NCBI GenBank assembly: GCA_039592335.1
Contig: JBDHBX010000003.1
Location: 131,056 to 195,055, forward strand
DNA length: 64,000 bases
DNA from: Gemmatimonadota bacterium
GTDB taxonomy: Bacteria; Gemmatimonadota; Gemmatimonadetes; Gemmatimonadales; GWC2-71-9
Direction of reading: 5' to 3'
The notes under the pieces are model-generated. The model saw only the letters and a list, made by a program, of their open reading frames with translations. It did no database searches and had not been told where the DNA came from. This document shows positions 7,910 through 38,006 of the stretch, piece by piece (positions within the stretch are counted from its first letter, which is position 1; each line of letters begins with the position of its first letter). A program made the position numbers and the translations under genes.

Positions 7910-8785
7910 ATGACACACACGGTGACGATCTGGGGCGCGCGGGGGTCCATCCCCACCCCCGGCGCGTTGACCACCCGGTACGGGGGCAACACGCCTTGTG
8001 TCGCGGTGGAGCACAGTGGCGACGCGGGCGACCGGCTGGTCATCCTGGACGCGGGCACCGGCATCCGGCTCCTGGGACAGGAGTTGGTGGAGCGCGGCAA
8101 CGGCCCGCTGCAGGTGGACCTGCTGCTGAGCCACACCCACTGGGACCACATCCAGGGCATCCCGTTCTTCGCACCGTTCTTCGACGACGGGAACGAGGTG
8201 CGGGTCTGGGGGTCCAAGCAGGGGGACGTGGATCTCGACGCCATCCTGCGACAGCAGATGCACCCGGTGGTGTTCCCGGTGCCGCTCGATCGCGTCGCCG
8301 CGGAGTTGTTCGTGGAGCACGTGGAGCCGGGCACGTTCGAGATCGACGGCTTCGAAGTGGACGCGATTCGGCTGCGTCACCCCGGCAATACCCTGGGATA
8401 TCGGCTGACGCCGATGGGAGGCGGGGCCAGCATGGCCTACGTCACCGACAACGAGCTCGGGCCGGGCGGAGAGTACGACGTCGGGCTGCGGTGGCGCCGG
8501 AAGCTGGTGCAGTTCCTGAAGGACGTAGACGTGCTGATCCACGACGCGATGTACACGCCCCACGATCTCGACCAGCACCGCGGCTGGGGACACTCGTCGT
8601 ATGCCGAGGCGGTGACGCTGGCGGCCGAGGCACGCGTGGCACGGCTGGTGCTGTTCCACCACCGACCGGAGCACGACGACGCGGCCATGGACAACGTGGT
8701 CGAGGCGGCACAAACGGCCGCGGAGGAGTCGGGGCAGACCTTCGAGGTCATCGCGGCCACCGAAGGGATGCAGCTCACCCTCTGA
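7910..8785 (+). CDS. MBL-fold metallo-hydrolase (Lactamase_B_2 type)
   Basis: LLLSHTHWDHIQG (HxHxDH) plus downstream His/Asp ligands (IHDAMY, LFHHRPEHDD). Confidence 0.8.
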   Translation: MTHTVTIWGARGSIPTPGALTTRYGGNTPCVAVEHSGDAGDRLVILDAGTGIRLLGQELVERGNGPLQVDLLLSHTHWDHIQGIPFFAPFFDDGNEVRVWGSKQGDVDLDAILRQQMHPVVFPVPLDRVAAELFVEHVEPGTFEIDGFEVDAIRLRHPGNTLGYRLTPMGGGASMAYVTDNELGPGGEYDVGLRWRRKLVQFLKDVDVLIHDAMYTPHDLDQHRGWGHSSYAEAVTLAAEARVARLVLFHHRPEHDDAAMDNVVEAAQTAAEESGQTFEVIAATEGMQLTL

Positions 8786-10296: not shown

Positions 10297-10961
10297 CGGC
10301 GCCGCTCTGCTTCGAGGACGTGGCCCTGCCGGGACTCGGCTCCCGGATCACGCTGGAGGTACCGGAGCACCGGGCGGTCGTGGTCACCGGCCCCGAGGCA
10401 AGCGGGGTGGACGCTCTGCCCGGGTACGCCCTGGCCCTCAGGCCCCCAGCGGCCGGCCGCGTGCTGCTCTTCGGGGAGGACGTGGCCGGCCTGTCGCGCC
10501 GCGACGCGCTCGCCTTCCGGCGGCAAGTGGGGTATTTGCCCGCCGGTGACGGCCTGCTGCACAACCTCTCCCTGCGGGACAACGTCGCCCTGCCCCTGCG
10601 CTACGGCAGCGACCTCACCGAGCGCGAGATCGACGGCCGCATCCGGATCATGCTGACGATGGTCAAGCTGCCCGACGCGCCGGACCTCCGGCCCGCCGAG
10701 GCCACCGAGGAACAGCGCCGGCGGACGGCCCTCGCGCGGGCGCTGGCGTTCGACCCCCACCTGGTGATCCTGGCCGACCCGTTCGACGGCTTGCCCACCC
10801 GGGCCGCCGCCGAGCTGCTGGAGCTTGCGCGAGGTGGGGAGACCGGGACAGGTTCGAGGCGCACCGTGTTCATGACGGGGCAGTTCATCCCCCAGCTGCT
10901 CGAGTCGCGGGTCGAGGTGCGGTACCGCCTCGCCAAGGGCGCGCTCGTGCGCGACACGTGA
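10293..10961 (+). CDS. MlaF-like ABC nucleotide-binding-domain protein with degenerate catalytic motifs (predicted pseudo-ATPase)
   Basis: ATGA overlap with mlaE. ABC fold is alignable, but Walker A reads GPEASGVD, signature ATEEQ, Walker B VILADP and H-switch MTGQ. Confidence 0.75.
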   Translation: MTAPLCFEDVALPGLGSRITLEVPEHRAVVVTGPEASGVDALPGYALALRPPAAGRVLLFGEDVAGLSRRDALAFRRQVGYLPAGDGLLHNLSLRDNVALPLRYGSDLTEREIDGRIRIMLTMVKLPDAPDLRPAEATEEQRRRTALARALAFDPHLVILADPFDGLPTRAAAELLELARGGETGTGSRRTVFMTGQFIPQLLESRVEVRYRLAKGALVRDT

Positions 10962-23667: not shown

Positions 23668-25023
23668 TCATGCGCGTTGCAGCCCGTACTTCTCGATCTT
23701 CTTGTACAGGTTGCTGCGCGGCATGTCGAGCTTGCGAGCCGTTTCGCTCACGTTCCAGCCGTTCTCCTCGAGTTTGGCCTCGAGGAAGGCACGCTCCGCC
23801 GTCTGCTTGAACGCCTCGAAGGTGTCGCAGTGGATCAGGTTGCCCACCGCGGCGTCCGCGGTGGCACCGGTGAGGCGGGCCACGTCTGCCGCGGTCACCT
23901 CCTCGCCGGCCGAGAGAATGACCAGGCGCTCGACGGCATTCCTGAGCTCCCGCACGTTCCCGGGCCAGTCGCGACCCTCCAGCGCCAGGACCGCGTCTTC
24001 CGCGAAGGTCTTGGGCTTCACCCCGCTGTCCCGTGCCAGGTCGGCCACGAACCGCTCGATGAGGAGCGGGATGTCCTCCCGGCGTCCGCGGAGCGGTGGC
24101 ACCTCGACCGGCACCACGTTCAGCCGGTAGTACAGGTCCTCCCGGAACCGACCCGCCGCGATCTCCTCGTCGATGTTCTTGTTCGTCGCGGCGATGACGC
24201 GCACATCGACCGAGACCGGCTTGGTGGCGCCAATGCGGGTGACCACACCTTCCTCCAGCGCGCGCAACACCTTGGCCTGCGCGGCGGCGCTCATGTCACC
24301 CACCTCGTCCAGGAACAGCGTGCCGCCGTCGGCCTGCTCGAACTTGCCCGCCCGGTCGGCAAACGCCCCGGTGAACGAGCCCTTCATGTGTCCGAACAGC
24401 TCGCTCTCGATGAGCTCGCTGGGGATGGCTGCGCAATTGACTTCCACGAACGGCTGGCCGGCCCGCGGCGACCCCCGGTGAACGCCGCGAGCGACCAGCT
24501 CCTTGCCGCTCCCGTTCTCGCCGGTGATGAGCACCCGCGCGGCCGTTGGGGCGACCTTGTCGATGATCTCGATGAGATGTCGGATCGCGGCGCTGTCACC
24601 CACGATGGCGTACTTGTCGCCGACCGACGCTCGCAAGCGCACGTTCTCCGACTCGAGCTCCGCCTGCTCGAGCGCGTGGCGCAGCGTGAGCAGGATGCGA
24701 TCGGTGTCGAGCGGCTTCTCGAGAAAATCATAGGCGCCGCGCTGCGTGGCCTCAACCGCCGTCTGGATGGTCCCGTGGCCCGAGATCATGACCACCTGCG
24801 CCGCCGGATCTTGCTCCCGCATCCGGGACAGCGTCTCGAGGCCATCCATGCCCGCCATCTTCACGTCAAGCAGCACCAGGTGCGGGAGGAACTCCGGGTA
24901 CGCGTTGAGCGCGGCGGCACCGGACTCCTCGGTGTGCACCTCGATACCTTCATACTCGAGGATCTGACGCAGCGCCTCGCGCACGCCCTTCTCGTCGTCC
25001 ACCACCAGAACCCGTTTCGCCAT
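23668..25023 (-). CDS. Sigma-54-dependent response regulator (REC, AAA+, Fis-type HTH; NtrC family)
   Basis: REC with VLVVDDE..LLDVKM..EKPL. AAA+ Walker A GENGSGKE. GSFTGA (GAFTGA-type) loop. C-terminal HTH. ATG 25023 shares a TGATG overlap with the upstream gene's stop. Confidence 0.9.
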   Translation of the reverse strand: MAKRVLVVDDEKGVREALRQILEYEGIEVHTEESGAAALNAYPEFLPHLVLLDVKMAGMDGLETLSRMREQDPAAQVVMISGHGTIQTAVEATQRGAYDFLEKPLDTDRILLTLRHALEQAELESENVRLRASVGDKYAIVGDSAAIRHLIEIIDKVAPTAARVLITGENGSGKELVARGVHRGSPRAGQPFVEVNCAAIPSELIESELFGHMKGSFTGAFADRAGKFEQADGGTLFLDEVGDMSAAAQAKVLRALEEGVVTRIGATKPVSVDVRVIAATNKNIDEEIAAGRFREDLYYRLNVVPVEVPPLRGRREDIPLLIERFVADLARDSGVKPKTFAEDAVLALEGRDWPGNVRELRNAVERLVILSAGEEVTAADVARLTGATADAAVGNLIHCDTFEAFKQTAERAFLEAKLEENGWNVSETARKLDMPRSNLYKKIEKYGLQRA

Positions 25024-25682
25024 CACTCGTCCCACCGGTAGAAGGTCACACCACTCGGACCGACCTCCACGTCACCTACCGTGCGTGGCACTGGCAGGAT
25101 GAATTGCCCCTCCGAACCGCCGGTAAGGTAATTCACCAGCCTCGGAATCGCGGAGTGCGGCAACGGGAATGCCATGACCGTCACCGCGTCGGGCGTCCAA
25201 CTTACCATCCCCGTGTCCCGCACGGCGACCGCCCCGCCGACCCGGATGGGCTGCCGCCCGTGGACATACCCCGCGAGCGGGCCGAGGAGTTCCCTGCTGA
25301 ACACTTCCATCAACACCTGTCCATCCAGCGTGACCCGCTCCTCCGTCAGGGTCAGCCGCAGCGAGTCCAGCGCCCGGCGCGCCACAGGATCCAGCCGGCT
25401 TTGAATGATCGACGCCATCTCGTCGGCGGTGAGGCGCACGCGCTCGGCGCCGCCGCGCCGCGCAATCAACTCCTCCTTGCGCAGCGCCGAACGCAGCGAC
25501 GCGTCGCTCGGCACCCCCACGGCCGGCTCTTGAGGAGGCGCATCCGCCGGCTCCTGGCCGGCCACCGAGCGAACACCTGTGACGATGGGTCGACGGTACT
25601 CCCAGGCGGCGAAGCCAGCCGCCACAAACACGGTCAGCGCTCCGATGAGCGCCAGCGCGTCGCGAAGGCACCCGCCCCTCAT
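25023..25682 (-). CDS. Hypothetical membrane-anchored protein
   Basis: ATG 25682 (ATGA overlap with the thpR stop) gives MRGGCLRDALALIGALTVFVAAGFAAW (TM). The listed start at 25967 would run through thpR. Confidence 0.5.
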   Translation of the reverse strand: MRGGCLRDALALIGALTVFVAAGFAAWEYRRPIVTGVRSVAGQEPADAPPQEPAVGVPSDASLRSALRKEELIARRGGAERVRLTADEMASIIQSRLDPVARRALDSLRLTLTEERVTLDGQVLMEVFSRELLGPLAGYVHGRQPIRVGGAVAVRDTGMVSWTPDAVTVMAFPLPHSAIPRLVNYLTGGSEGQFILPVPRTVGDVEVGPSGVTFYRWDE

Positions 25683-31208: not shown

Positions 31209-32771
31209 TCAGCTCACAGGCCGATCGAGACTGCGGTACTGCACCGCCTCGGCGACGTGCCGCGACTGGATGTCGCCGTCACCCTCTACGTCGGCGATGG
31301 TGCGGGCGATCTTGAGCACTCGGTGGTAGGCCCGAGCCGAGAGCTTGAGGCGCGCGATCGCGGTCCTGAGCAGGGCGTCGGCCCCCTGGCCGATGCGGCA
31401 GAGCCGCTTCAGGTGCTTGGGAGCCATGTGGGCGTTGGCGAACAGGCCCTCACTCGCCCCGAAGCGCTCGAGTTGGCGGAGGCGCGCCTGGTTCACCCGC
31501 TCCCGCACGGCCGCGCTGGACTCCCCGCTCCGCTCGCACGAGAGCTCCCGGTACGGCACCGCCGGGACCTCGATGTGAAGGTCGATGCGGTCGAGCAGTG
31601 GCCCGGAGACGCGCGACAGGTATCGCTCGACCAGAGGCAGGCCACAGGTACAGGCGCGACTGGGATTGCCGAAATACCCGCAGGGACACGGGTTCATCGC
31701 GGCGGCGAGCATGAATCTGGCGGGATAGCAGAGCGAGGCGGCGGCACGCGAGATGGTCACGAACCCGTCTTCCAGCGGCTGACGCAGCACCTCCAGCACG
31801 TTCCTGCGAAACTCGGGGAGCTCGTCGAGGAAGAGCACGCCACCGTTGGCGAGACTCACCTCACCGGGACGCGGGTGCGCACCTCCACCGATCATTCCCG
31901 CGTCGCTGATGGTGTGGTGCGGCGCCCGAAACGGCCGTAGCGTAACAAGCGCGGCTCCGGGCGACAGCGATCCGGCTACGCTGTGGATCTTCGTGGTTTC
32001 CAGCGCCTCCTCGAGCGTCGCTTCCGGGAGAATCGTCGGCAGCCGGCGGGCGAGCATCGTCTTGCCGGAGCCAGGCGGGCCGATCATGAGCAGGTTGTGC
32101 GCCCCCGCTGCGGCGATCTCCAACGCGCGCTTGGCGTGCTCCTGGCCGCGCACCTCGGCGAGATCGGCCGCGTCATTCGACGCGCTCCCGAACAGCGACC
32201 CCCGTTCCACGGCGGCCCGCGGGAGCGGCTTCCCCTCCCGGAAGTACGCTGCCACCTGCGCGAGCGCCTCGGCCCCCAGCACCTCGATGCCCTCCACCAC
32301 GCCTGCCTCCGCCACGTTCGCCGCGGGCACGATGACGCCTCTCAGCCTCTGCGCCTTCGCGGCCAGCGCAATGGACAGGACGCCGCGCACCGGGCGCAAC
32401 CCACCCTCGAGGGAGAGCTCACCTACGACGACGTACTCCCCGAGGGCGGGCGGCCCGCTCCGCTTCGCTCCACGGCCGTTGGGGTTGAGCTGCCCCGTGG
32501 CCGCGAGGATCCCCAGCGCGATAGGCAGATCGAACGCCGAGCCCTCCTTGCGTACGTCCGCCGGGGCCAAGTTGACGGTGATCCGCTTCAACGGGAATTC
32601 AAACTCCGAGTTCGCCACCGCCGCCCCGACGCGCTCCCGTCCCTCCTTCACCGCCCCATGCGGCAGCCCTACGGTCGTGAACGAGGGCAGACCTTTCGCG
32701 ATGTCGGTCTCGACATCGACCAGATACGCGTCGATGCCGAGCACCGCGGCCGAACGCACGCGGGCGAGCAT
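31209..32771 (-). CDS. comM: YifB/ComM-family Mg-chelatase-like AAA+ ATPase
   Basis: MLARVRSAAVLGIDAY N-terminus, Walker A GPPGSGKTMLA, and LFLDELPEF. ATG 32771. Confidence 0.9.
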   Translation of the reverse strand: MLARVRSAAVLGIDAYLVDVETDIAKGLPSFTTVGLPHGAVKEGRERVGAAVANSEFEFPLKRITVNLAPADVRKEGSAFDLPIALGILAATGQLNPNGRGAKRSGPPALGEYVVVGELSLEGGLRPVRGVLSIALAAKAQRLRGVIVPAANVAEAGVVEGIEVLGAEALAQVAAYFREGKPLPRAAVERGSLFGSASNDAADLAEVRGQEHAKRALEIAAAGAHNLLMIGPPGSGKTMLARRLPTILPEATLEEALETTKIHSVAGSLSPGAALVTLRPFRAPHHTISDAGMIGGGAHPRPGEVSLANGGVLFLDELPEFRRNVLEVLRQPLEDGFVTISRAAASLCYPARFMLAAAMNPCPCGYFGNPSRACTCGLPLVERYLSRVSGPLLDRIDLHIEVPAVPYRELSCERSGESSAAVRERVNQARLRQLERFGASEGLFANAHMAPKHLKRLCRIGQGADALLRTAIARLKLSARAYHRVLKIARTIADVEGDGDIQSRHVAEAVQYRSLDRPVS

Positions 32772-32902
32772 GGGAATCCTCGGGGCCAGGGTGCCCCATG
32801 GTAGAGCGACATGCGGGAATGGCGGGATCGATGCGATGCGGGATGGGATCAGAAAACTGCGACAGCTCCGCTTACGCCGAAGCGGCAGGCTCACAACGCC
32901 AA

Positions 32903-32924
32903 GGGCCCCACATCGGTGGGGCCC
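32903..32924 (-). terminator. Candidate intrinsic terminator after the STAS-ECF-SnoaL operon
   Basis: GGGCCCCAC-atcg-GTGGGGCCC (9-bp stem). On the minus strand it is followed by UUGGCGUUGUG. The U-tract is imperfect. Confidence 0.45.
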
Positions 32925-32985
32925 AGCGGCTTCGCTTCGCTTCTATTGGCCTGCCCGTCGGCAGGCGGTGCGGCGACCTTCCCCG

Positions 32986-33354
32986 CTACATCCGATCCAC
33001 GAACCGCTCACGTACGACCTTGCCGTCGCGCCAGTGGCGTGCCACGACCTGCGTGCCCGCCCGATGTCCGGGGCGCGGACGCCGATTCACGATCCACTCG
33101 GAGACCGACGTGTCGCGGGCGGTCACGCTGCGTACCGGGAACGCCCCGAGGAAGGTCTCCACCCAGCCGAAGAACGCGAGCGCCCGTGCATAATCGGAGC
33201 CGGCGTGGCGACCGCGCAGCCCCCTCCTGGGCTGCATGGCGTCCTCGCTGTAGAACTCCTCGTACGCCTCGAGAAACCGGCCCGCGAGGAGCTTGGCATT
33301 CAGCTCCTCCTCGAGCCTGTGCACGTCGGCGGGCACGGTGCTCAGGAGATGCAT
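32986..33354 (-). CDS. SnoaL/NTF2-like fold protein
   Basis: 122 aa with a pattern like SnoaL_2 proteins (L..F..YEEFYSEDA....; W....G.VV.ERF). Starts 4 nt after the ECF sigma stop. The family call is tentative. Confidence 0.55.
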   Translation of the reverse strand: MHLLSTVPADVHRLEEELNAKLLAGRFLEAYEEFYSEDAMQPRRGLRGRHAGSDYARALAFFGWVETFLGAFPVRSVTARDTSVSEWIVNRRPRPGHRAGTQVVARHWRDGKVVRERFVDRM

Positions 33355-33358
33355 CGTC

Positions 33359-33952
33359 CTACGCCGCCTGGAGGCCGATGTCGGGCTTCACGTAGCCCAT
33401 CTCGATCGCGTAGCCGAACAGCTTCTTCTGGAGGAACTGCCGCGCCCGGTGGATCCGTGACTTCACGGTGCCCAGCGGCGCCCCCGTCTCCCGAGCGATC
33501 ACCGCGTAAGGCAGCCCGTCCATGTCGCTCATCAGGAGCGCCTGCTTGTACTCCGCCGGCAGCTCGTCCATGGCCTGAACGATCTCGTCGTCCACCAACC
33601 CATTGAAGAAGTCACGCTCCGGGTCAGGAGCGTCCCCCCGGTTCAGGATCATGAACGACTCCATGTCCTCCACGCTCATGCGGTCCACCTCGCGCTTGCG
33701 CCGGCGGTACTCGTTGATGAACGAGTTGCGGAGGATCGTGGCCAGCCACGCCCGTACGTTCGAGCCGGCATCGAAGCGGTGCCAGTTGCTGTGCGCCCGC
33801 AGCATCGTCTCCTGCACCAGGTCTTCGGCCATGGCGGGCTCACCGCTCAGGCGCAAGGCAAACCGGTAGAGGAACTCCGAGTGCGGCATCGCCAGGTCCT
33901 CGAAGATCGGCGGTGCGACCGCCATGGGAATCTCCGTGGCAACAGCGGTCAT
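33359..33952 (-). CDS. ECF-type sigma-70 family factor
   Basis: Region 2 LVQETMLRAHSNWHRFD..RAWLATILRN.FINEYRR and region 4 LPAEYKQALLMSDMDGLPYAVIARETGAPLGTVKSRIHRAR. ATG 33952 overlaps the STAS stop (ATGA). Confidence 0.85.
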   Translation of the reverse strand: MTAVATEIPMAVAPPIFEDLAMPHSEFLYRFALRLSGEPAMAEDLVQETMLRAHSNWHRFDAGSNVRAWLATILRNSFINEYRRRKREVDRMSVEDMESFMILNRGDAPDPERDFFNGLVDDEIVQAMDELPAEYKQALLMSDMDGLPYAVIARETGAPLGTVKSRIHRARQFLQKKLFGYAIEMGYVKPDIGLQAA

Positions 33953-34218
33953 AACGGCTCCTTCTGTCCCAGGAGGGCGCCAAGAAAGGGTGCGGCGTGC
34001 ACGACCTCGAACTGATCGCTCGGCAGCTCGCGGAGCATCGCGATGCCGTGCCGGTCGATCGCGGCCACGTCGGCGAAGTCGAGCTGCACCCGGCGCCCAA
34101 CGTCGATCTGCTCGCGGCACTCCTGCTCGAGCAGGCTGACGGCGTCGCCTTGAATTCGCCCCTCCACCTTGAGAGTGATCTGCGGGGGCAGTTCGGCGAG
34201 TCGGGTAATGCGCAGCAC
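33949..34218 (-). CDS. STAS-domain protein (anti-sigma-antagonist-like, lacks phosphorylatable Ser)
   Basis: 89 aa. LKVEGRI.GDAV..L......VQLDFADVAAIDRHGIAMLREL matches STAS topology. GTG start with AAGGA 7 nt upstream. Confidence 0.6.
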   Translation of the reverse strand: MLRITRLAELPPQITLKVEGRIQGDAVSLLEQECREQIDVGRRVQLDFADVAAIDRHGIAMLRELPSDQFEVVHAAPFLGALLGQKEPL

Positions 34219-34255
34219 GCTCCGGTCCTTGGCAGTGGGTTCGCTACTCCTTTAT

Positions 34256-34271
34256 AGCAGACCACGTGCCA
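34256..34271 (-). promoter_or_regulatory. Sigma-54 (-24/-12) promoter upstream of the STAS-ECF-SnoaL operon
   Basis: The minus strand reads TGGCACGTGGTCTGCT (GG-N10-GC, TGGCAC-N5-cTGCt), about 38 nt upstream of the STAS start and directly downstream of a sigma-54 EBP gene. Confidence 0.65.
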
Positions 34272-34333
34272 CACCGAGCCGGACGGTCACGATTCGTCTA
34301 AACAGTTGGAAAAGAAATACTTACAAGACATGA

Positions 34334-34357
34334 CGGCCGGGCAATCGGACCCGGCCG
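34334..34357 (-). terminator. Candidate terminator hairpin after the EBP gene
   Basis: CGGCCGGG-N8-CCCGGCCG. On the minus strand it is followed by UCAUGUCUUGUAAGUAUUUCUUUUCC (U-rich, but not immediately adjacent). Confidence 0.4.
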
Positions 34358-34372
34358 CGAACACAGTACTTA

Positions 34373-34400
34373 CGATATTTCGTCAGGCGACGAAATATCG
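34373..34400. promoter_or_regulatory. Perfect AT-rich inverted repeat, candidate enhancer (UAS) for the sigma-54 promoter
   Basis: CGATATTTCGTC-aggc-GACGAAATATCG. Arms are 12 bp. The centre lies about 120 bp upstream of the -24/-12 element. Confidence 0.45.
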
Positions 34401-34416
34401 GTGGCGCACCATCTCA

Positions 34417-36318
34417 TCAGGCGCCGCCGTTACGCACGATCCCCAGCTTCTTCATGCGCGCCTGGAGCGTCGTGGGCTTCATCCCCAGGATGCGGGCGGC
34501 GCCCTTGGGCCCGCTCACCCGCCAGCTGGTGTGCTCCAGCGCGCTCAGGATATGGCGCCGCTGCACCTCGTCCAGCGTCAGGAGCGCACCCTCGGCAGCC
34601 ACCGGTCCCGACTCCCGCAGCCACTCGCCCAGCTCCAGCTCGGTCTCCGGGCTCACGATCACGGCGCGCTCGATCACGTTCTCGAGTTCCCGTACGTTGC
34701 CCGGCCACACATAGCTCTTGAGCGCGTTCATCGCCCGCTGCGGCACGGTCTCGATTGTCTTCCCCATCCGCTTAGCGTACTTCTGCACGAAGTAGTTCAC
34801 CAGGACCGGGATGTCGCCCTTGCGGTTCCTGAGGGCCGGCACAGGGATCGGGTACACCTTGAGCCGGAAGTACAGGTCGGAGCGGAAACGCTGCTCCTCC
34901 ACGGCACGCTCGAGGTCCCGGTTGGTGGCCGCCATCACCCGCACGTCCACGGTGATCGACTTGCTGCCGCCCACGCGCTCGAACTCCCCGTCCTGCAGCA
35001 CTCGCAACAGCTTCACCTGGAGCTCCGCCGGTAGGTCGCCGATCTCGTCGAGGAAGATGCTGCCACCGTCGGCCAACTCGAAGCGCCCCTCCCGGCGCCG
35101 CGTCGCGCCGGTGAAGGCACCCTTTTCGTGCCCGAACAGCTCGCTCTCGATGAGGCCCGCGGAGAGCGCCGCACAGTTCACCTTCACGAGGACGCTGTCC
35201 TTGCGAGTGCTCGCCCCGTGGATCGCGCGCGCGACCAGTTCCTTGCCGGTGCCGGTCTCGCCCGTGATGAGCACGGTGGAGTCGGTCGCCGCCACCCGCT
35301 CGATGTCCCGGAACAGCTTCTTGATGTTGGTCGAGGCACCCACGATCTCCCCGAAGTTGTGCTCCATCTCGATCTCTTCCTGCAGGTACACCTTCTCGAG
35401 ACTGAGCTTGCGGCGCTGCTCCTCGCCCTGAACCCGCTCGGAGATGTCCCGGGCCAGGGCCAGCACCCGCTTCGTGCCCCCCTCCTCCAGCAGGCAGGTG
35501 CGCACCTCCACGGGGAATCGCGTGCCGTCCTTGCGGCGATGCAAGCCGGCGATCGTCGTGGGGCCGGACCGCTCGATCTCCTCCAGGTTGCGGCGCAGCC
35601 GCTCCGGCGAGAAACCCTCCCAGACGTCCCACACGCGCATCCTGCTCAACGCACCGCGGTGGTAGCCGCTGGAAACCACGGCGTGCTGGTTCACCTCCAC
35701 GATGCGGCCGTTCTGCTCGATGACGTAGATCGCGTCGGCGGCCCGCTCGACCAGGCGGCGGAAGCGCTCTTCACTCTCGCGCAGCTTCGCCTCCGCCTCC
35801 TTGCGTTGGGTCACGTCGCGCACCCAGGCGATGACCCGCCGCTCGCCCTCCATGTCCACCGCCGAGGCGGAGATCTCGGCCGCCAGCTTGGTGTGGTCCT
35901 TGGTGACGCAGCTGAGCTCATCAGTCCAGCCCATGCCGTCGCGCAGCACCCGGCGGGTGAAGTCCTGGAGCTGGCCCACCTCGTCGGGATGGATGGCGGA
36001 GACCGGCAGCCTCATGAGCTCCTCGCGCGTGTACCCGAGCAGCTCACAGGCCCGCGGATTGACGTCCAGGATCGCGCCACCCATTGGCTCGATGACGAAC
36101 AGGGCGTCATGCGAGTGCTCGAAGAAGCTGCGCAGGCGCTCCTCGCTCTTGCGCAATGCTTCCTCGGCCCGCTGCAGCACCTGGCGCGCTTCGCGCGACG
36201 CCTCGAACTGCACCTCGAGAACCTCGAGCTCCGAAAGGAGCTGCTCTCGGCTCTTGCGTCCGACCTTGGCCGGCTCGTCCGCGCGGACGGTGAATTCGCC
36301 GGTGTCGCCTGGGCTCAT
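34417..36318 (-). CDS. Sigma-54-dependent transcriptional activator with two PAS domains (PAS-PAS-AAA+-HTH), no receiver domain
   Basis: AAA+ [25 protein letters not shown]-terminal HTH ([21 protein letters not shown]). Two PAS-like segments. I prefer ATG 36318; the listed start is TTG 36345. Confidence 0.9.
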
Positions 36319-36607
36319 GGCTCGCTCATTCCCCCTCGGTCGCAATCTGACACGTCTGACAATATTTGGTAAGTTCCTCGCCGTTCAGGCAGGCTGCGCC
36401 GGTGTGGCGGCGCACGACGTAAGTCGTTACCCCATAGCACGTTTCGTCCATCAGCACCACCTGGGAACCCGACCGGACCCAGCCACGTTCTCGTATCCAA
36501 CCACGACGTGTTGGGCGGCCTCGCGGCCCTGTGAGGTTCTCGCTGGAGGGGTGAGCGAGCATCCACTGCTCGGCCTGACGCGTCGCGGCTTTTCCTCCCC
36601 GACCGAA

Positions 36608-36636
36608 AGAGGCGGCCTCCAACGGAGGCCGCCTCT
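36608..36636 (-). terminator. Intrinsic terminator after the MFS transporter gene
   Basis: AGAGGCGGCCTCC-aac-GGAGGCCGCCTCT (13-bp stem). On the minus strand it is followed by UUUCGG. Confidence 0.7.
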
Positions 36637-36668
36637 CGCGTTTGGATGCGCTCGGCGTGTCTCGCCGA

Positions 36669-38006
36669 TCACTCCTCCCGGGCCTTCGCCCGTGCCACCG
36701 CTTCCGCTTCCAGGGTCGACCTCACCGTGATGGTCTCCAGCCCGTGGGCCTTGGGACCGGTCTCCTGCTTGCGCAGCATCACCGCAAAGAGGAACCCGAG
36801 AACGCCCAACACCGAGAAGATCCACATGCCGGCGGCGTAGCCGCCCGGGTTGGCGGCGCTCGCCTCGAAGGCGTCGTTCGTCCTGCCGATGAGCCAGTTC
36901 ATCCCCGCAACACCGATCTGCTGCACCAGCGTCATCACGGCGTACCCGGTCCCGAGCCGGTTCTCGGGCACGATGTACGCGACGGCCGGCCACATCACCG
37001 CGGGAATGAGGGAGAATGCGAGGCCCATCATCACGACCGGCACGCCCAGCGGCACGAGCTGGTACGCCATCATCAAGTACACCGGCATGAGCAGGAACGA
37101 GCCCGCGGCCATGAACAGCGCACGCTTGCCGAACCGGTCCACCAGGAGGCCGAACAGCGGCGTCGCGATCATGGCGGAGAGCGGCAGGATGCTGTTCAAG
37201 CCACCGGCGCCCTCACGCGTGAGACCGTGGCCCTCGATGAAGAACTTGATGGCGAAGCTGCGGAACGGGAAGATCGCCGAGTAGAAGGTCACACAGAGCA
37301 GCACCACCAACCAGAACGACCGGTCGAAGCGGAACATGTCCTTCACGACGAGCCGGTCGATCTCGCCCCGCTCGCCCAGCGCGTAGCGCCGCCGGGCCCC
37401 CGTTTCCATCACGCCGTAGCCGATGGCCGGGACCACGCACAGCAGGCTCAGCACCGCAGCCACGATCAGCGGCCCCTGCCAGCCCGTGTAGGCGAAACCC
37501 GCCCAGCTGGGGGAGTTGTCGGCCGCGACCTGCCCCAGCCGCGCGAAGGTGAGGTTCAGCCCGAAGGCGAAACTCAGCTCCTTCCCCTTGAACCATTTGG
37601 CGAGCGCGGTCGTGATCGCCACGATGAGCGGCTCGGAGCCGATGCCGAGCAGGAAGCGGGCCGACAGCATGACCGACAGCTCGCCCGAGACGGCATTGAG
37701 AATCGCCGCGACGGTGCACAGGGCGCCGAAGAAGATGATGGAGATAACCGTACCGAACCGGTCGATCACGACACCGCCGATGAGCAGCACGATCACCGCG
37801 GCGATGCTGTACACCGAGTAGAGCTGGCCGATGTTCTCGTCGCTGAACCCCAGGTCGGCCTTGAGAATGTCGGCGATGGGCGCAACGGAATCGTAGACGT
37901 AGTAATTCCCGAACATCGCAAGGCTGACGACGACCAGCACCGCCCAGCGATAGAGCGTCGGCGGCGGTGGGCGCACCACGTCTGCGGCGGCTCGAGGTTC
38001 GGTCAT
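36669..38006 (-). CDS. MFS transporter
   Basis: 445 aa with about 12 predicted TM segments and MFS-type loop motifs (GGVVIDRFG, LVDRFGKR). Confidence 0.8.
   Translation of the reverse strand: MTEPRAAADVVRPPPPTLYRWAVLVVVSLAMFGNYYVYDSVAPIADILKADLGFSDENIGQLYSVYSIAAVIVLLIGGVVIDRFGTVISIIFFGALCTVAAILNAVSGELSVMLSARFLLGIGSEPLIVAITTALAKWFKGKELSFAFGLNLTFARLGQVAADNSPSWAGFAYTGWQGPLIVAAVLSLLCVVPAIGYGVMETGARRRYALGERGEIDRLVVKDMFRFDRSFWLVVLLCVTFYSAIFPFRSFAIKFFIEGHGLTREGAGGLNSILPLSAMIATPLFGLLVDRFGKRALFMAAGSFLLMPVYLMMAYQLVPLGVPVVMMGLAFSLIPAVMWPAVAYIVPENRLGTGYAVMTLVQQIGVAGMNWLIGRTNDAFEASAANPGGYAAGMWIFSVLGVLGFLFAVMLRKQETGPKAHGLETITVRSTLEAEAVARAKAREE

Follow-up and report, generated by a model that had tools for sequence, protein, structure and literature searches.

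In Vibrio fischeri an enhancer-binding protein (EBP), SypG, acts with sigma-54 on a locus that includes sypA, the gene of a STAS-only protein; SypE phosphorylates SypA on the canonical Ser, and SypA acts on the production of biofilm polysaccharide. The small protein HycA antagonises the EBP FhlA, whose sensory part is a formate-binding GAF region. The gene hycA is the first of the FhlA-dependent hyc operon, PspA is the anti-activator of PspF, and the enhancer (UAS) of FhlA is CATTTCGTACGAAATG (PMC4987338). A known sigma-54 to ECF cascade is that of HrpRS and HrpL (ECF32) in Pseudomonas syringae and Erwinia, where an ECF sigma without anti-sigma factor is expressed from an EBP-activated sigma-54 promoter and is controlled by transcription (PMC8999054). 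Other anti-sigma-less ECFs (ECF41, ECF56, ECF294, ECF295, ECF205) are genetically tied to a SnoaL-like domain, fused to them as a C-terminal extension (PMC7826278), and ECF41-type sigmas are regulated by fused SnoaL domains (PMC7826278, PMC8999054). Single-domain STAS proteins encoded beside a sigma gene are represented by SpoIIAA and RsbV, the anti-sigma antagonists of partner-switching systems.

The locus described here belongs to a Gemmatimonadota bacterium and lies in a window of 64 kb (the whole stretch of DNA that was analysed). Its minus-strand order is EBP, 198-nt spacer, 89-aa STAS protein (mini-STAS), ECF sigma and 122-aa protein; this order, the spacer, the promoter element and the palindrome, all reported in the initial annotation, were located again at the following positions:

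34417..36318, minus strand: FhlA-like sigma-54 EBP, PAS-PAS-AAA+(GAFTGA)-HTH_8, receiver-less (Pfam and NCBIfam)
34219-34416: spacer between EBP and STAS, 198 nt, with the palindrome, a terminator-like hairpin and TGGCACGTGGTCTGCT
34373..34400: probable enhancer (UAS), CGATATTTCGTC-GCCT-GACGAAATATCG, a perfect inverted repeat with 12-nt arms
34333..34358, minus strand: GC-rich terminator-like hairpin, probable end of the EBP transcript (terminator scan)
34256..34271, minus strand: predicted sigma-54 -24/-12 promoter TGGCACGTGGTCTGCT, 1 mismatch to TGGCACG-N4-TTGCW
33949..34218, minus strand: mini-STAS, operon gene 1, 89 aa, GTG start, MLRIT...TLKVEGR...LDFADV..ID-R-HG
33359..33952, minus strand: ECF sigma, 197 aa (Sigma70_r2 3.9e-20, r4_2 4.1e-18)
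32986..33354, minus strand: divergent SnoaL/NTF2-like protein, 122 aa, 4 nt past the ECF stop (profile and fold)
32903..32924, minus strand: probable operon terminator, hairpin GGGCCCCAC-CGAT-GTGGGGCCC, then TTGGCGTTGTG

The locus resembles the Hrp cascade in having an anti-sigma-less ECF gene behind an EBP-dependent sigma-54 promoter; it differs in its PAS-bearing, FhlA-like EBP (the HrpR/HrpS pair is sensor-less), in its SigH/TIGR02947-like ECF, in the STAS gene that stands between promoter and ECF, and in its Gemmatimonadota host, where no T3SS context surrounds the locus. In its core the EBP resembles FhlA most, and the UAS half-site ATTTCGT/ACGAAAT is common to both, but the sensors here are PAS domains and the spacing of the half-sites is 6 bp wider. 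As in the hyc and psp operons, a small protein is the product of gene 1 in an EBP-dependent sigma-54 operon; those of hyc and psp act back on the EBP, whereas in this locus the product, a STAS domain, has no relationship to HycA or PspA, and such feedback is proposed for it below. In contrast to SpoIIAA/RsbV, the mini-STAS has Arg in place of the phosphorylatable Ser, is accompanied by neither an RsbW/SpoIIAB kinase nor a PP2C phosphatase, has an ECF and not a group 3 sigma as its neighbour, is shorter, and belongs to a family that tracks a sigma-54 EBP. To the extent tested, SypA does not belong to the MLRIT/TLKVEGR family. Unlike the SnoaL domains of fused ECFs, the SnoaL-like protein is encoded by a separate gene found in a narrow clade only, and TIGR02960 is not the nearest model to the ECF core.

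The EBP has 633 aa from its ATG (642 aa if the TTG at 36345 is used) and matches two PAS domains, Sigma54_activat (2.7e-72), AAA_lid_14 and HTH_8 in Pfam, by which no receiver domain was found; it carries the GAFTGA and ESELFGH motifs, and FhlA is the best NCBIfam match for its core. The AAA+-HTH core shares 56-77% identity with mini-STAS-adjacent EBPs of other lineages, compared with 44-49% for other EBPs in the same DNA and 44% for the second EBP of the window; on these values the mini-STAS-adjacent EBPs are one orthologous group.

The GC of TGGCACGTGGTCTGCT falls at 34257-34258 and the 3' end of the element lies 37 nt ahead of the STAS GTG start. Sites with at most one mismatch number 2 in the window against 0.58 expected, a roughly 3.5-fold excess that is statistically weak in one window, and the promoter call is strong because the element is conserved across loci, not because of this single match. 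In the orthologous loci L001 and L004 its GG and GC are invariant and the spacer between them is variable, and 30 of 31 loci, drawn from many lineages, have a GG-N10-GC element upstream of the mini-STAS gene, 14-48 nt ahead of the start (about 150 nt in one clade). Among the 31 loci examined, 13 have an element with no more than one mismatch and 29 one with no more than three (0.6% and 6.1%, respectively, of random 200-nt segments).

About 117 bp separate the centre of the palindrome from the -24 GG downstream, and the palindrome arms have no other perfect copies across the 64 kb. In 19 of 28 loci the promoter is preceded, at a distance of 90-125 bp, by CGAWATWTCG-related motifs, often paired 18-19 bp apart (background, 3.6% of random 200-nt segments), and the half-site core ATTTCGT/ACGAAAT is also the core of the FhlA UAS (PMC4987338). 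In L001 and L004 the left arm is degenerate and the right half-site is retained, which fits a protein site rather than a hairpin; both loci also keep a GC hairpin at the place of 34333..34358, and the RNA fold of 34325-34420 gave z=-5.1. The initial annotation had read the spacer as a sigma-54 promoter with its enhancer, and the recurring UAS-like motif with its FhlA half-site agrees with this geometry at the level of sequence. Its further proposal, that sigma-54 and the EBP direct transcription of the ECF gene, has good support in the recurrence of EBP, promoter and UAS across loci: this gene is very probably read from the sigma-54 promoter under the control of the adjacent receiver-less PAS EBP.

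An orthologous FhlA-like EBP adjoins the mini-STAS gene in 25 of 29 dereplicated loci, the remaining four being contigs that are too short for a call. Of the 23 metagenome loci, 18 have an EBP immediately ahead of the mini-STAS gene in the same orientation and 2 others have one in the vicinity, the remainder being short contigs, and the linkage extends to loci of Rokubacteria, Verrucomicrobia, Competibacteraceae, Nitrospiraceae and Acidobacteriaceae. What follows the mini-STAS gene is variable: an ECF comes directly after it in 15 of the 29 dereplicated loci, with best NCBIfam models of at least four types, and non-sigma genes follow in at least 11 loci (CHRD, lactonase, DoxX, DUF3307-Rieske-DinB, CRP), the cargo types being interspersed on the STAS tree. 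Gene content, conservation of promoter and UAS, EBP-STAS linkage and variability of the cargo were thus established by comparison of sequences. Judged from these neighbourhoods, what is conserved as a unit is the EBP with the sigma-54 promoter and the mini-STAS, and the mini-STAS tracks the EBP and promoter, not the ECF; the trio is apparently a widespread and undescribed regulatory cassette, often with an ECF as cargo.

The STAS-ECF-SnoaL triad, put forward initially as a module, is not supported as a conserved functional unit: an ECF is present in about half of the loci and belongs to at least four families, unrelated genes take its place elsewhere, and the SnoaL-like gene is missing in L012 and L033.

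The mini-STAS matches STAS_2 (Pfam) with E=1.6e-5 and a score of 25.4 bits that does not reach the gathering score (29.2), and its relatives carry PF13466/PF01740. The best solved relative by profile match is the anti-sigma antagonist TM1442, and in the alignment with it the Arg of AIDRHG, the residue that follows the conserved Asp, occupies the phospho-Ser position, as expected of the non-phosphorylatable protein first described. This position is other than Ser/Thr in 17 of 19 members of the family, which comprises 1097 protein clusters from at least eight named bacterial lineages. Kinase, phosphatase and anti-sigma genes were found in none of the annotated mini-STAS contexts, and the absence of a kinase and of a classical anti-sigma noted earlier holds for the locus and its annotated orthologous loci (no HATPase kinase, zf-HC2 or transmembrane anti-sigma gene). 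Relative to two orthologous loci, substitutions are in excess at the third codon position in all four annotated frames, which marks these as coding frames, and the pattern gave no sign of an overlooked conserved alternative frame. The gene rpoN was not found within the 64-kb window.

The ECF start overlaps the STAS stop as ATGA, and overlaps of this kind (ATGA, GTGA or 4-nt) occur in the window, L012 and L045. The sigma is SigH/TIGR02947-like with a score below the family cutoff (NCBIfam); TIGR02960, the long SnoaL-carrying type, is matched more weakly and by the N-terminal part only. For the 122-aa protein, the SnoaL-like identity proposed initially failed with every Pfam HMM (no Pfam or NCBIfam match at E<=1) and was recovered by profile homology and predicted fold: a profile search gave 122 relatives, with SnoaL_2/SnoaL_5/SnoaL accounting for 25 of 45 aligned sequences, and the best PDB matches of its AF2 model (pLDDT 86, pTM 0.79) are all SnoaL-like or NTF2 folds. 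It has lost the DVVMQEN...GK.ANR.RE motif of its enzyme-like SnoaL relatives and so may act by binding, with the ECF as a possible partner. Its gene is confined to a narrow Gemmatimonadota clade and one other contig, and is absent from the nearest outgroups (L012 and L033), both with the same ECF type; on this distribution the protein is a lineage-specific addition.

The locus may be pictured as a sigma-54 regulatory cassette that has a secondary sigma factor under its control and in which the mini-STAS feeds back on the EBP, a reading with about even chances of being correct. The cytoplasmic EBP would sense a signal through its PAS domains, bind the palindrome and remodel the sigma-54 RNA polymerase held at TGGCACGTGGTCTGCT, which would drive the mini-STAS, ECF sigma and SnoaL-like genes as one operon. 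Control of the ECF would lie mainly in its synthesis, as in the HrpRS to HrpL cascade, which would explain the missing anti-sigma gene. By analogy with PspA/PspF and HycA/FhlA, the mini-STAS could modulate the EBP as anti-activator or co-activator. To our knowledge, there is no known case of a STAS domain that binds an AAA+ activator, and the EBP already has PAS sensors of its own, so that a separate modulator is not strictly required.

Instead of contacting the EBP, the mini-STAS and/or the SnoaL-like protein might bind the ECF and set its activity post-translationally, sigma-54 being left with transcription only; this is unlikely, if a serious contender, and would amount to a new form of anti-sigma-less control. 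The translational coupling of STAS and ECF, of a tightness often seen between interacting partners, and the ECF found immediately behind the STAS in roughly half of the cassettes argue for it and against the STAS-EBP reading. The same is true of L015, where the ECF type of the window (51% and 49% identity) occurs together with a SnoaL-like relative (43%) and with a mini-STAS (39%) in a different arrangement, the mini-STAS following the ECF paralogue with no sigma-54 promoter visible there. The SnoaL-like gene, moreover, occupies the usual anti-sigma position of SigH/SigR-type ECFs, its product lacks the motif of its SnoaL relatives, and fused SnoaL domains set the precedent cited above. Direct control of the ECF accounts poorly, however, for mini-STAS genes ahead of non-sigma genes or of four ECF types, for the missing SnoaL-like gene in L012 and L033, for the next closest SnoaL-like relatives (P0023 and P0024), which lie in polysaccharide-type contexts with no ECF, and for the ECF itself, a SigH-like protein without extension and not of the SnoaL-fused kind.

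It is rather improbable that the mini-STAS is no more than the leading and best conserved target of the regulon, with a task unrelated to either regulator (e.g., binding of a ligand or nucleotide, or an MlaB-like accessory role for an ATPase or transporter encoded elsewhere) and an ECF controlled by transcription only. STAS_2 is the MlaB-type family and JGI labels some members 'MlaB component', the redox/stress cargo (DoxX, CMD/AhpD-like, Rieske, DinB, CHRD, SigH-like ECF) would fit a shared small effector, and no partner gene is evident; nevertheless, the strict first-gene position and co-inheritance with one EBP orthologue group, kept from lineage to lineage amid otherwise changing genes, are more typical of a regulator, and Mla or transporter genes are absent nearby. 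That the -24/-12 element and the palindrome are chance matches or a terminator, the operon being served by read-through from the EBP gene or by an unrecognised sigma-70-type promoter, is very improbable: the weak single-window excess and the place of the palindrome just past the EBP stop codon, where it could fold as an RNA hairpin, are outweighed by the conservation of the element far above background, the decay of one palindrome arm with retention of the other half-site, the separate GC hairpin between the EBP gene and the promoter, and the lack of any sigma-70-like promoter in 32700-36700. At the other end of the operon, the RNA fold of the region around the probable terminator (32890-32990) gave z=-3.6.

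Read on the minus strand from 36318 to 32986, the locus (window base composition, 68% G+C) comprises, in order, an FhlA-like enhancer-binding protein (EBP) of sigma-54, a spacer of 198 nt, a short STAS-only protein (mini-STAS), an ECF sigma factor and a 122-aa ORF. The initial annotation described it accurately, its genes and spacer elements being recovered at their places by inspection of the sequence, Pfam searches and promoter and palindrome scans. The features are:

Start at 36318 (-): EBP, 633 aa, with two PAS domains, a sigma-54 interaction AAA+ domain, AAA_lid_14 and a Fis-type HTH
34373-34400: perfect 12+12 palindrome CGATATTTCGTC-GCCT-GACGAAATATCG, candidate upstream enhancer site (UAS)
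34333-34358: GC-rich terminator-like hairpin
34256-34271: sigma-54 -24/-12 element TGGCACGTGGTCTGCT, one mismatch to the consensus, separated from the STAS start by 37 nt
33949-34218 (-): mini-STAS, 89 aa, GTG start; STAS_2 match at 1.6e-5, just below the gathering score
Following gene (-): ECF sigma, 197 aa, its ATG overlapping the STAS stop as ATGA; TAG stop
End at 32986 (-): 122-aa ORF, with a 4-nt gap to the ECF stop

The closest relatives of the window are Gemmatimonadota MAGs. The same order of the four genes recurs in the Gemmatimonadota chromosome CP070716 (2.87 Mb) and in a second lineage with 75–85% protein identity, the genes to the right of the unit differing between these loci; the arrangement of the four predicted genes is conserved within the clade. 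Against the two orthologous loci (L001 and L004), third codon positions take most substitutions in all four annotated frames, which are therefore real genes. A canonical anti-sigma factor in an overlooked frame was also looked for, and the substitution pattern does not point to any conserved overlapping frame in which one could be hidden.

The EBP carries the features of a sigma-54 activator, namely an AAA+ domain (Sigma54_activat, 2.7e-72) with the GAFTGA motif at 35121 and a DNA-binding HTH (HTH_8, 5e-9); no receiver domain was found with Pfam, and FhlA is the best NCBIfam match for its core. Other EBPs linked to a mini-STAS are 56–77% identical to it across the AAA+-HTH core and vary in their sensor parts (two or three PAS, GAF, or PAS-PAS-GAF). 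A second sigma-54 EBP is encoded in the window at 23668-25035 (-), with motifs GSFTGA and ESELFGH; it shares only 44% core identity with the STAS-linked EBP and corresponds to the receiver-domain EBP of L001. An RpoN box was not found within the 64-kb window, and sigma-54 use is implied indirectly by this second EBP and its counterpart in L001.

Promoter elements were scored against the consensus TGGCACG-N4-TTGCW (-24 GG, -12 GC). In the spacer alignment of the window, L001 and L004 the GG...GC of the -24/-12 element is retained while the intervening bases have changed, and the right half of the palindrome and the GC-rich hairpin are also retained. Across 31 loci, orthologous and distant, a GG-N10-GC element precedes the mini-STAS start in 30, at a distance of 14–48 nt as against about 150 nt in one clade. 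With at most one mismatch in 13 loci and at most three in 29, the element is conserved well above background (0.6 and 6.1%, respectively, of random 200-nt pieces of the same DNA). Further upstream, 90–125 bp from the promoter, a CGAWATWTCG-type motif occurs in 19 of 28 loci (background rate, 3.6%), often as paired copies 18–19 bp apart. The motif shares its half-site core, ATTTCGT/ACGAAAT, with the UAS of FhlA, CATTTCGTACGAAATG (PMC4987338), and the candidate UAS is a conserved palindromic motif located at the distance expected of sigma-54 enhancers (about 80–150 bp). A conserved ECF-type autoregulatory promoter (SigH-like GGAAT-N17/18-GTT) was not seen by eye in the spacers of the window, L001 and L004. 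This phylogenetic footprinting strongly supports the earlier proposal that sigma-54, together with a cytoplasmic PAS-containing EBP, transcribes the ECF gene, and we regard such control as very probable.

Between the hairpin and the promoter lies an AT-rich stretch (34295-34330 (-), ..AAGTATTTCTTTTCCAACTGTTTAGAC..), partly kept in L001 and L004 (AAGT...AA..TTAGA), which could be an IHF-type bending site. The only other match to the sigma-54 consensus with at most one mismatch in the window, TGGCACGGCTGGTGCT at 8637-8652 (+), was dropped as probably due to chance because it sits inside overlapping long ORFs.

The assignment of the 89-aa protein to the STAS fold is supported by profile searches: the protein itself matches STAS_2, although under the gathering score, its relatives carry PF13466 or PF01740, and the family profile matches TM1442, SpoIIAA and RsfB. 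The family is sharply defined by the signature MLRIT..TLKVEGR..LDFADV.F[IV]D..G and comprises 1097 clusters in a profile search, with source names that include Gemmatimonadales, Rokubacteria, Handelsmanbacteria, Verrucomicrobia, Latescibacteria, Binatia, Competibacteraceae and Nitrospirales. The position of the phosphorylatable Ser, the residue after the conserved Asp (Ser59 in TM1442), is occupied by Arg in the window protein, and of 19 family members only the two most divergent have Ser or Thr there. The protein had been called non-phosphorylatable and devoid of a partner kinase, and both statements agree with these data and with the Pfam-annotated contexts of the family loci, in which neither a HATPase_c anti-sigma kinase nor a PP2C phosphatase was found. 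As the phospho-Ser is replaced and no kinase or phosphatase is encoded nearby, the mini-STAS, judged from its sequence, cannot work as a classical partner switch.

Mini-STAS loci were gathered by exact-protein look-ups, a genome scan and a two-block DNA pattern scan of metagenomes. The genome scan, based on a narrower STAS alignment, was swamped by chance pattern matches (four confirmed among more than 600), and the two-block scan recovered 23 metagenome loci. In 18 of these the mini-STAS is immediately preceded by an EBP on its own strand, 176–257 nt away, in two more the EBP is near, and the remainder are short contigs; an adjacent EBP is also present in all longer contexts from other lineages. 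Of 29 dereplicated loci, 15 have an ECF sigma gene next after the mini-STAS. These sigma factors are SigH-like (the window and its nearest outgroups L012 and L033), PRK12533-like, PRK11922-like or, in a Nitrospiraceae genome, TIGR02943-like. At L031, L041 and L042 two different ECFs stand in tandem, a PRK12533/SigH-like one first and a PRK11922-like one second. Other cassettes carry a secreted CHRD protein, a lactonase propeller, DoxX with a CMD/AhpD-like protein, a DUF3307-Rieske-DinB set, a CRP-type regulator or an unknown protein. In the STAS tree cassettes with and without an ECF are interspersed, and those with a lactonase are sister to the window's ECF clade. The invariant unit is the EBP, the sigma-54 promoter and the mini-STAS, with exchangeable cargo, and the STAS-ECF-SnoaL triad is not supported as the functional unit that had been envisaged.

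Some loci depart from the usual layout. In L036 (1598-2299) a CRP/FNR-type regulator (cNMP_binding and HTH_Crp_2) follows the mini-STAS, with the EBP downstream on the opposite strand; the cassette would therefore also drive a non-sigma secondary regulator. In L043 (2213-6458, a Verrucomicrobia MAG) only fragments were called of the EBP that precedes the mini-STAS and of the ECF that follows it (PAS, AAA+/HTH and Sigma70_r2, each on its own), which could reflect decay or assembly frameshifts; a second EBP, 49% identical, and DoxX-Rieske-cytochrome c genes lie further downstream.

The ECF sigma contains sigma-70 regions 2 and 4 only, and its annotation is confirmed by Pfam (Sigma70_r2, 3.9e-20; r4_2, 4.1e-18) and by TIGR02937 (101.5 bits; cutoff, 42.9). 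The best NCBIfam model, the SigH-like TIGR02947 (SigH_actino), scores 135.5 bits, far below its cutoff of 251.6, so that the ECF group is not assignable from this match. As had been observed, no cognate anti-sigma gene (ASDI, ZAS or transmembrane) is adjacent, the neighbors being the STAS and SnoaL-like genes only, and the orthologous loci are likewise devoid of one. Unlike in ECFs of the ECF41/56 type, in which a SnoaL-like domain is fused to the C-terminus, the SnoaL-like protein is encoded here by a separate ORF.

This 122-aa protein, whose gene is followed by a hairpin with a T-rich tail, had been described as SnoaL-like; it has no Pfam or NCBIfam match, and neither it nor its nine closest relatives match any Pfam family at E<=1. 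Its SnoaL-like character emerged by other means. Close clusters are only seven, all from Gemmatimonadota, and their profile retrieved 122 full-length relatives from 1.84 billion representatives; 25 of 45 aligned sequences match SnoaL_2, SnoaL_5 or SnoaL, among them P0026 (profile E=1.6e-16), with SnoaL_2 at 36.4 bits, above the gathering score of 27. An initial AlphaFold (AF2) model based on the seven close homologues was discarded (pLDDT 50.6); with a deeper alignment, which contained SnoaL members and thus biases the model toward that fold, values of pLDDT 86 and pTM 0.79 were obtained. All top Foldseek matches of this model in the PDB are SnoaL-like/NTF2 proteins (CatM, limonene epoxide hydrolase, SnoaL and AknH; TM 0.5–0.58). 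The motif DVVMQEN...GK.ANR.RE, conserved in the SnoaL-positive relatives, is lost in the 122-aa protein and its nine closest relatives. On profile homology, motif loss and modeled fold, it is a divergent protein of predicted NTF2/SnoaL fold that is probably no longer the same kind of enzyme as its SnoaL relatives.

The SnoaL-like gene is missing from L012 and L033, which are the two closest outgroups to retain the window's ECF type, and reappears in L015 only. Within its subgroup, P0021 (encoded in L015) is the only relative linked to an ECF, the contig of P0022 being too short; a general ECF link was rejected given the contexts of P0023 and P0024, which contain no ECF. These two, the next closest relatives, share a repeated context (L018 564-2650 and L017 4375-5688, respectively) consisting of an unknown gene of 204–212 aa, the SnoaL-like gene and an NAD-dependent epimerase, with polysaccharide export genes near. 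L015 (1-2043, a 2-kb contig) encodes two paralogous ECFs of the window's type: a unit with a sigma-54-like promoter (TGGCACGCCCCCTGCC), an ECF (51% identity) and the SnoaL-like gene (43%) is convergent with the second paralogue, which is followed by a divergent 99-aa mini-STAS with Thr at the phospho-position. The SnoaL-like protein may serve as an accessory that binds the ECF, or it may simply be cargo.

A cascade in which sigma-54 controls an ECF gene would follow the logic of HrpRS-HrpL (PMC8999054), and transcriptional control of this type explains the missing anti-sigma factor. As to the mini-STAS, the initial annotation held that it and/or the SnoaL-like protein act post-translationally on the ECF. 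This alternative stays alive because the STAS and ECF genes are tightly coupled (ATGA overlap) and ECF cargo is frequent after the mini-STAS (15 of 29 loci); set beside the exchangeable cargo and the patchy SnoaL-like gene, we consider it unlikely. Our tentative preference, possible and somewhat short of probable, is that the mini-STAS would act back on its own EBP or on the sigma-54 initiation complex.

HycA modulates FhlA, the closest match of the EBP core. PspA, the modulator of PspF, is the product of the first gene of the EBP-regulated operon, and hycA is first in the hyc operon (PMC4987338). The mini-STAS gene matches this first-gene position in 30 of 31 loci; its product has no homology to PspA or HycA in Pfam, and its contact with the EBP is what we infer from the analogy. 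A bolder version of this feedback reading, rather doubtful at present, is that mini-STAS proteins constitute a dedicated class of partners of FhlA-like EBPs, a non-phosphorylatable STAS domain binding their conserved AAA+/HTH core, tuning their activity and forming a portable self-regulating cassette free of kinase and phosphatase. If true, such a cassette has spread through at least eight named lineages, repeatedly switching on ECFs.

The cascade principle is already known, to our knowledge from essentially one model, HrpL. A widespread conserved EBP/sigma-54/mini-STAS cassette, often with ECFs, appears to be undescribed: full-text literature searches gave no paper tying STAS-only proteins to sigma-54 EBPs and no mention of STAS in the ECF re-classification, nor did a review of STAS-only proteins mention this association. 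The data suggest that such cascades occur commonly in little-studied lineages (Gemmatimonadota, Nitrospirota, Rokubacteria, Verrucomicrobiota, Acidobacteriota and Competibacteraceae), in the form of a recognizable cassette with predictable promoter and enhancer that always includes a STAS-only protein incapable of the textbook phosphorylation-driven partner switch. Action of the mini-STAS on the EBP would widen the known roles of STAS domains and introduce a bEBP modulator of a new type. With its conserved promoter and candidate UAS the regulon is directly testable, and these two elements could find use as an expression module under tight control. To ECF classification the cascade offers one route by which ECFs without anti-sigma factor can be controlled.

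As to the signal, the DoxX, AhpD-like, DinB, Rieske and CHRD cargo and the SigH-like ECF hint, speculatively, at redox or thiol stress. The window mini-STAS (33949-34218 (-)) has a Cys at residue 34, in the motif E-x-E-C, which is retained in most but not all family members and, taken with the redox-type cargo, could hint at thiol sensing. L025 contains, 2.9 kb downstream of its mini-STAS gene, a further mini-STAS-like ORF that is truncated (10456-10668, ..LVTLKVEGRVVAEWVQVLHGECLQWI..).
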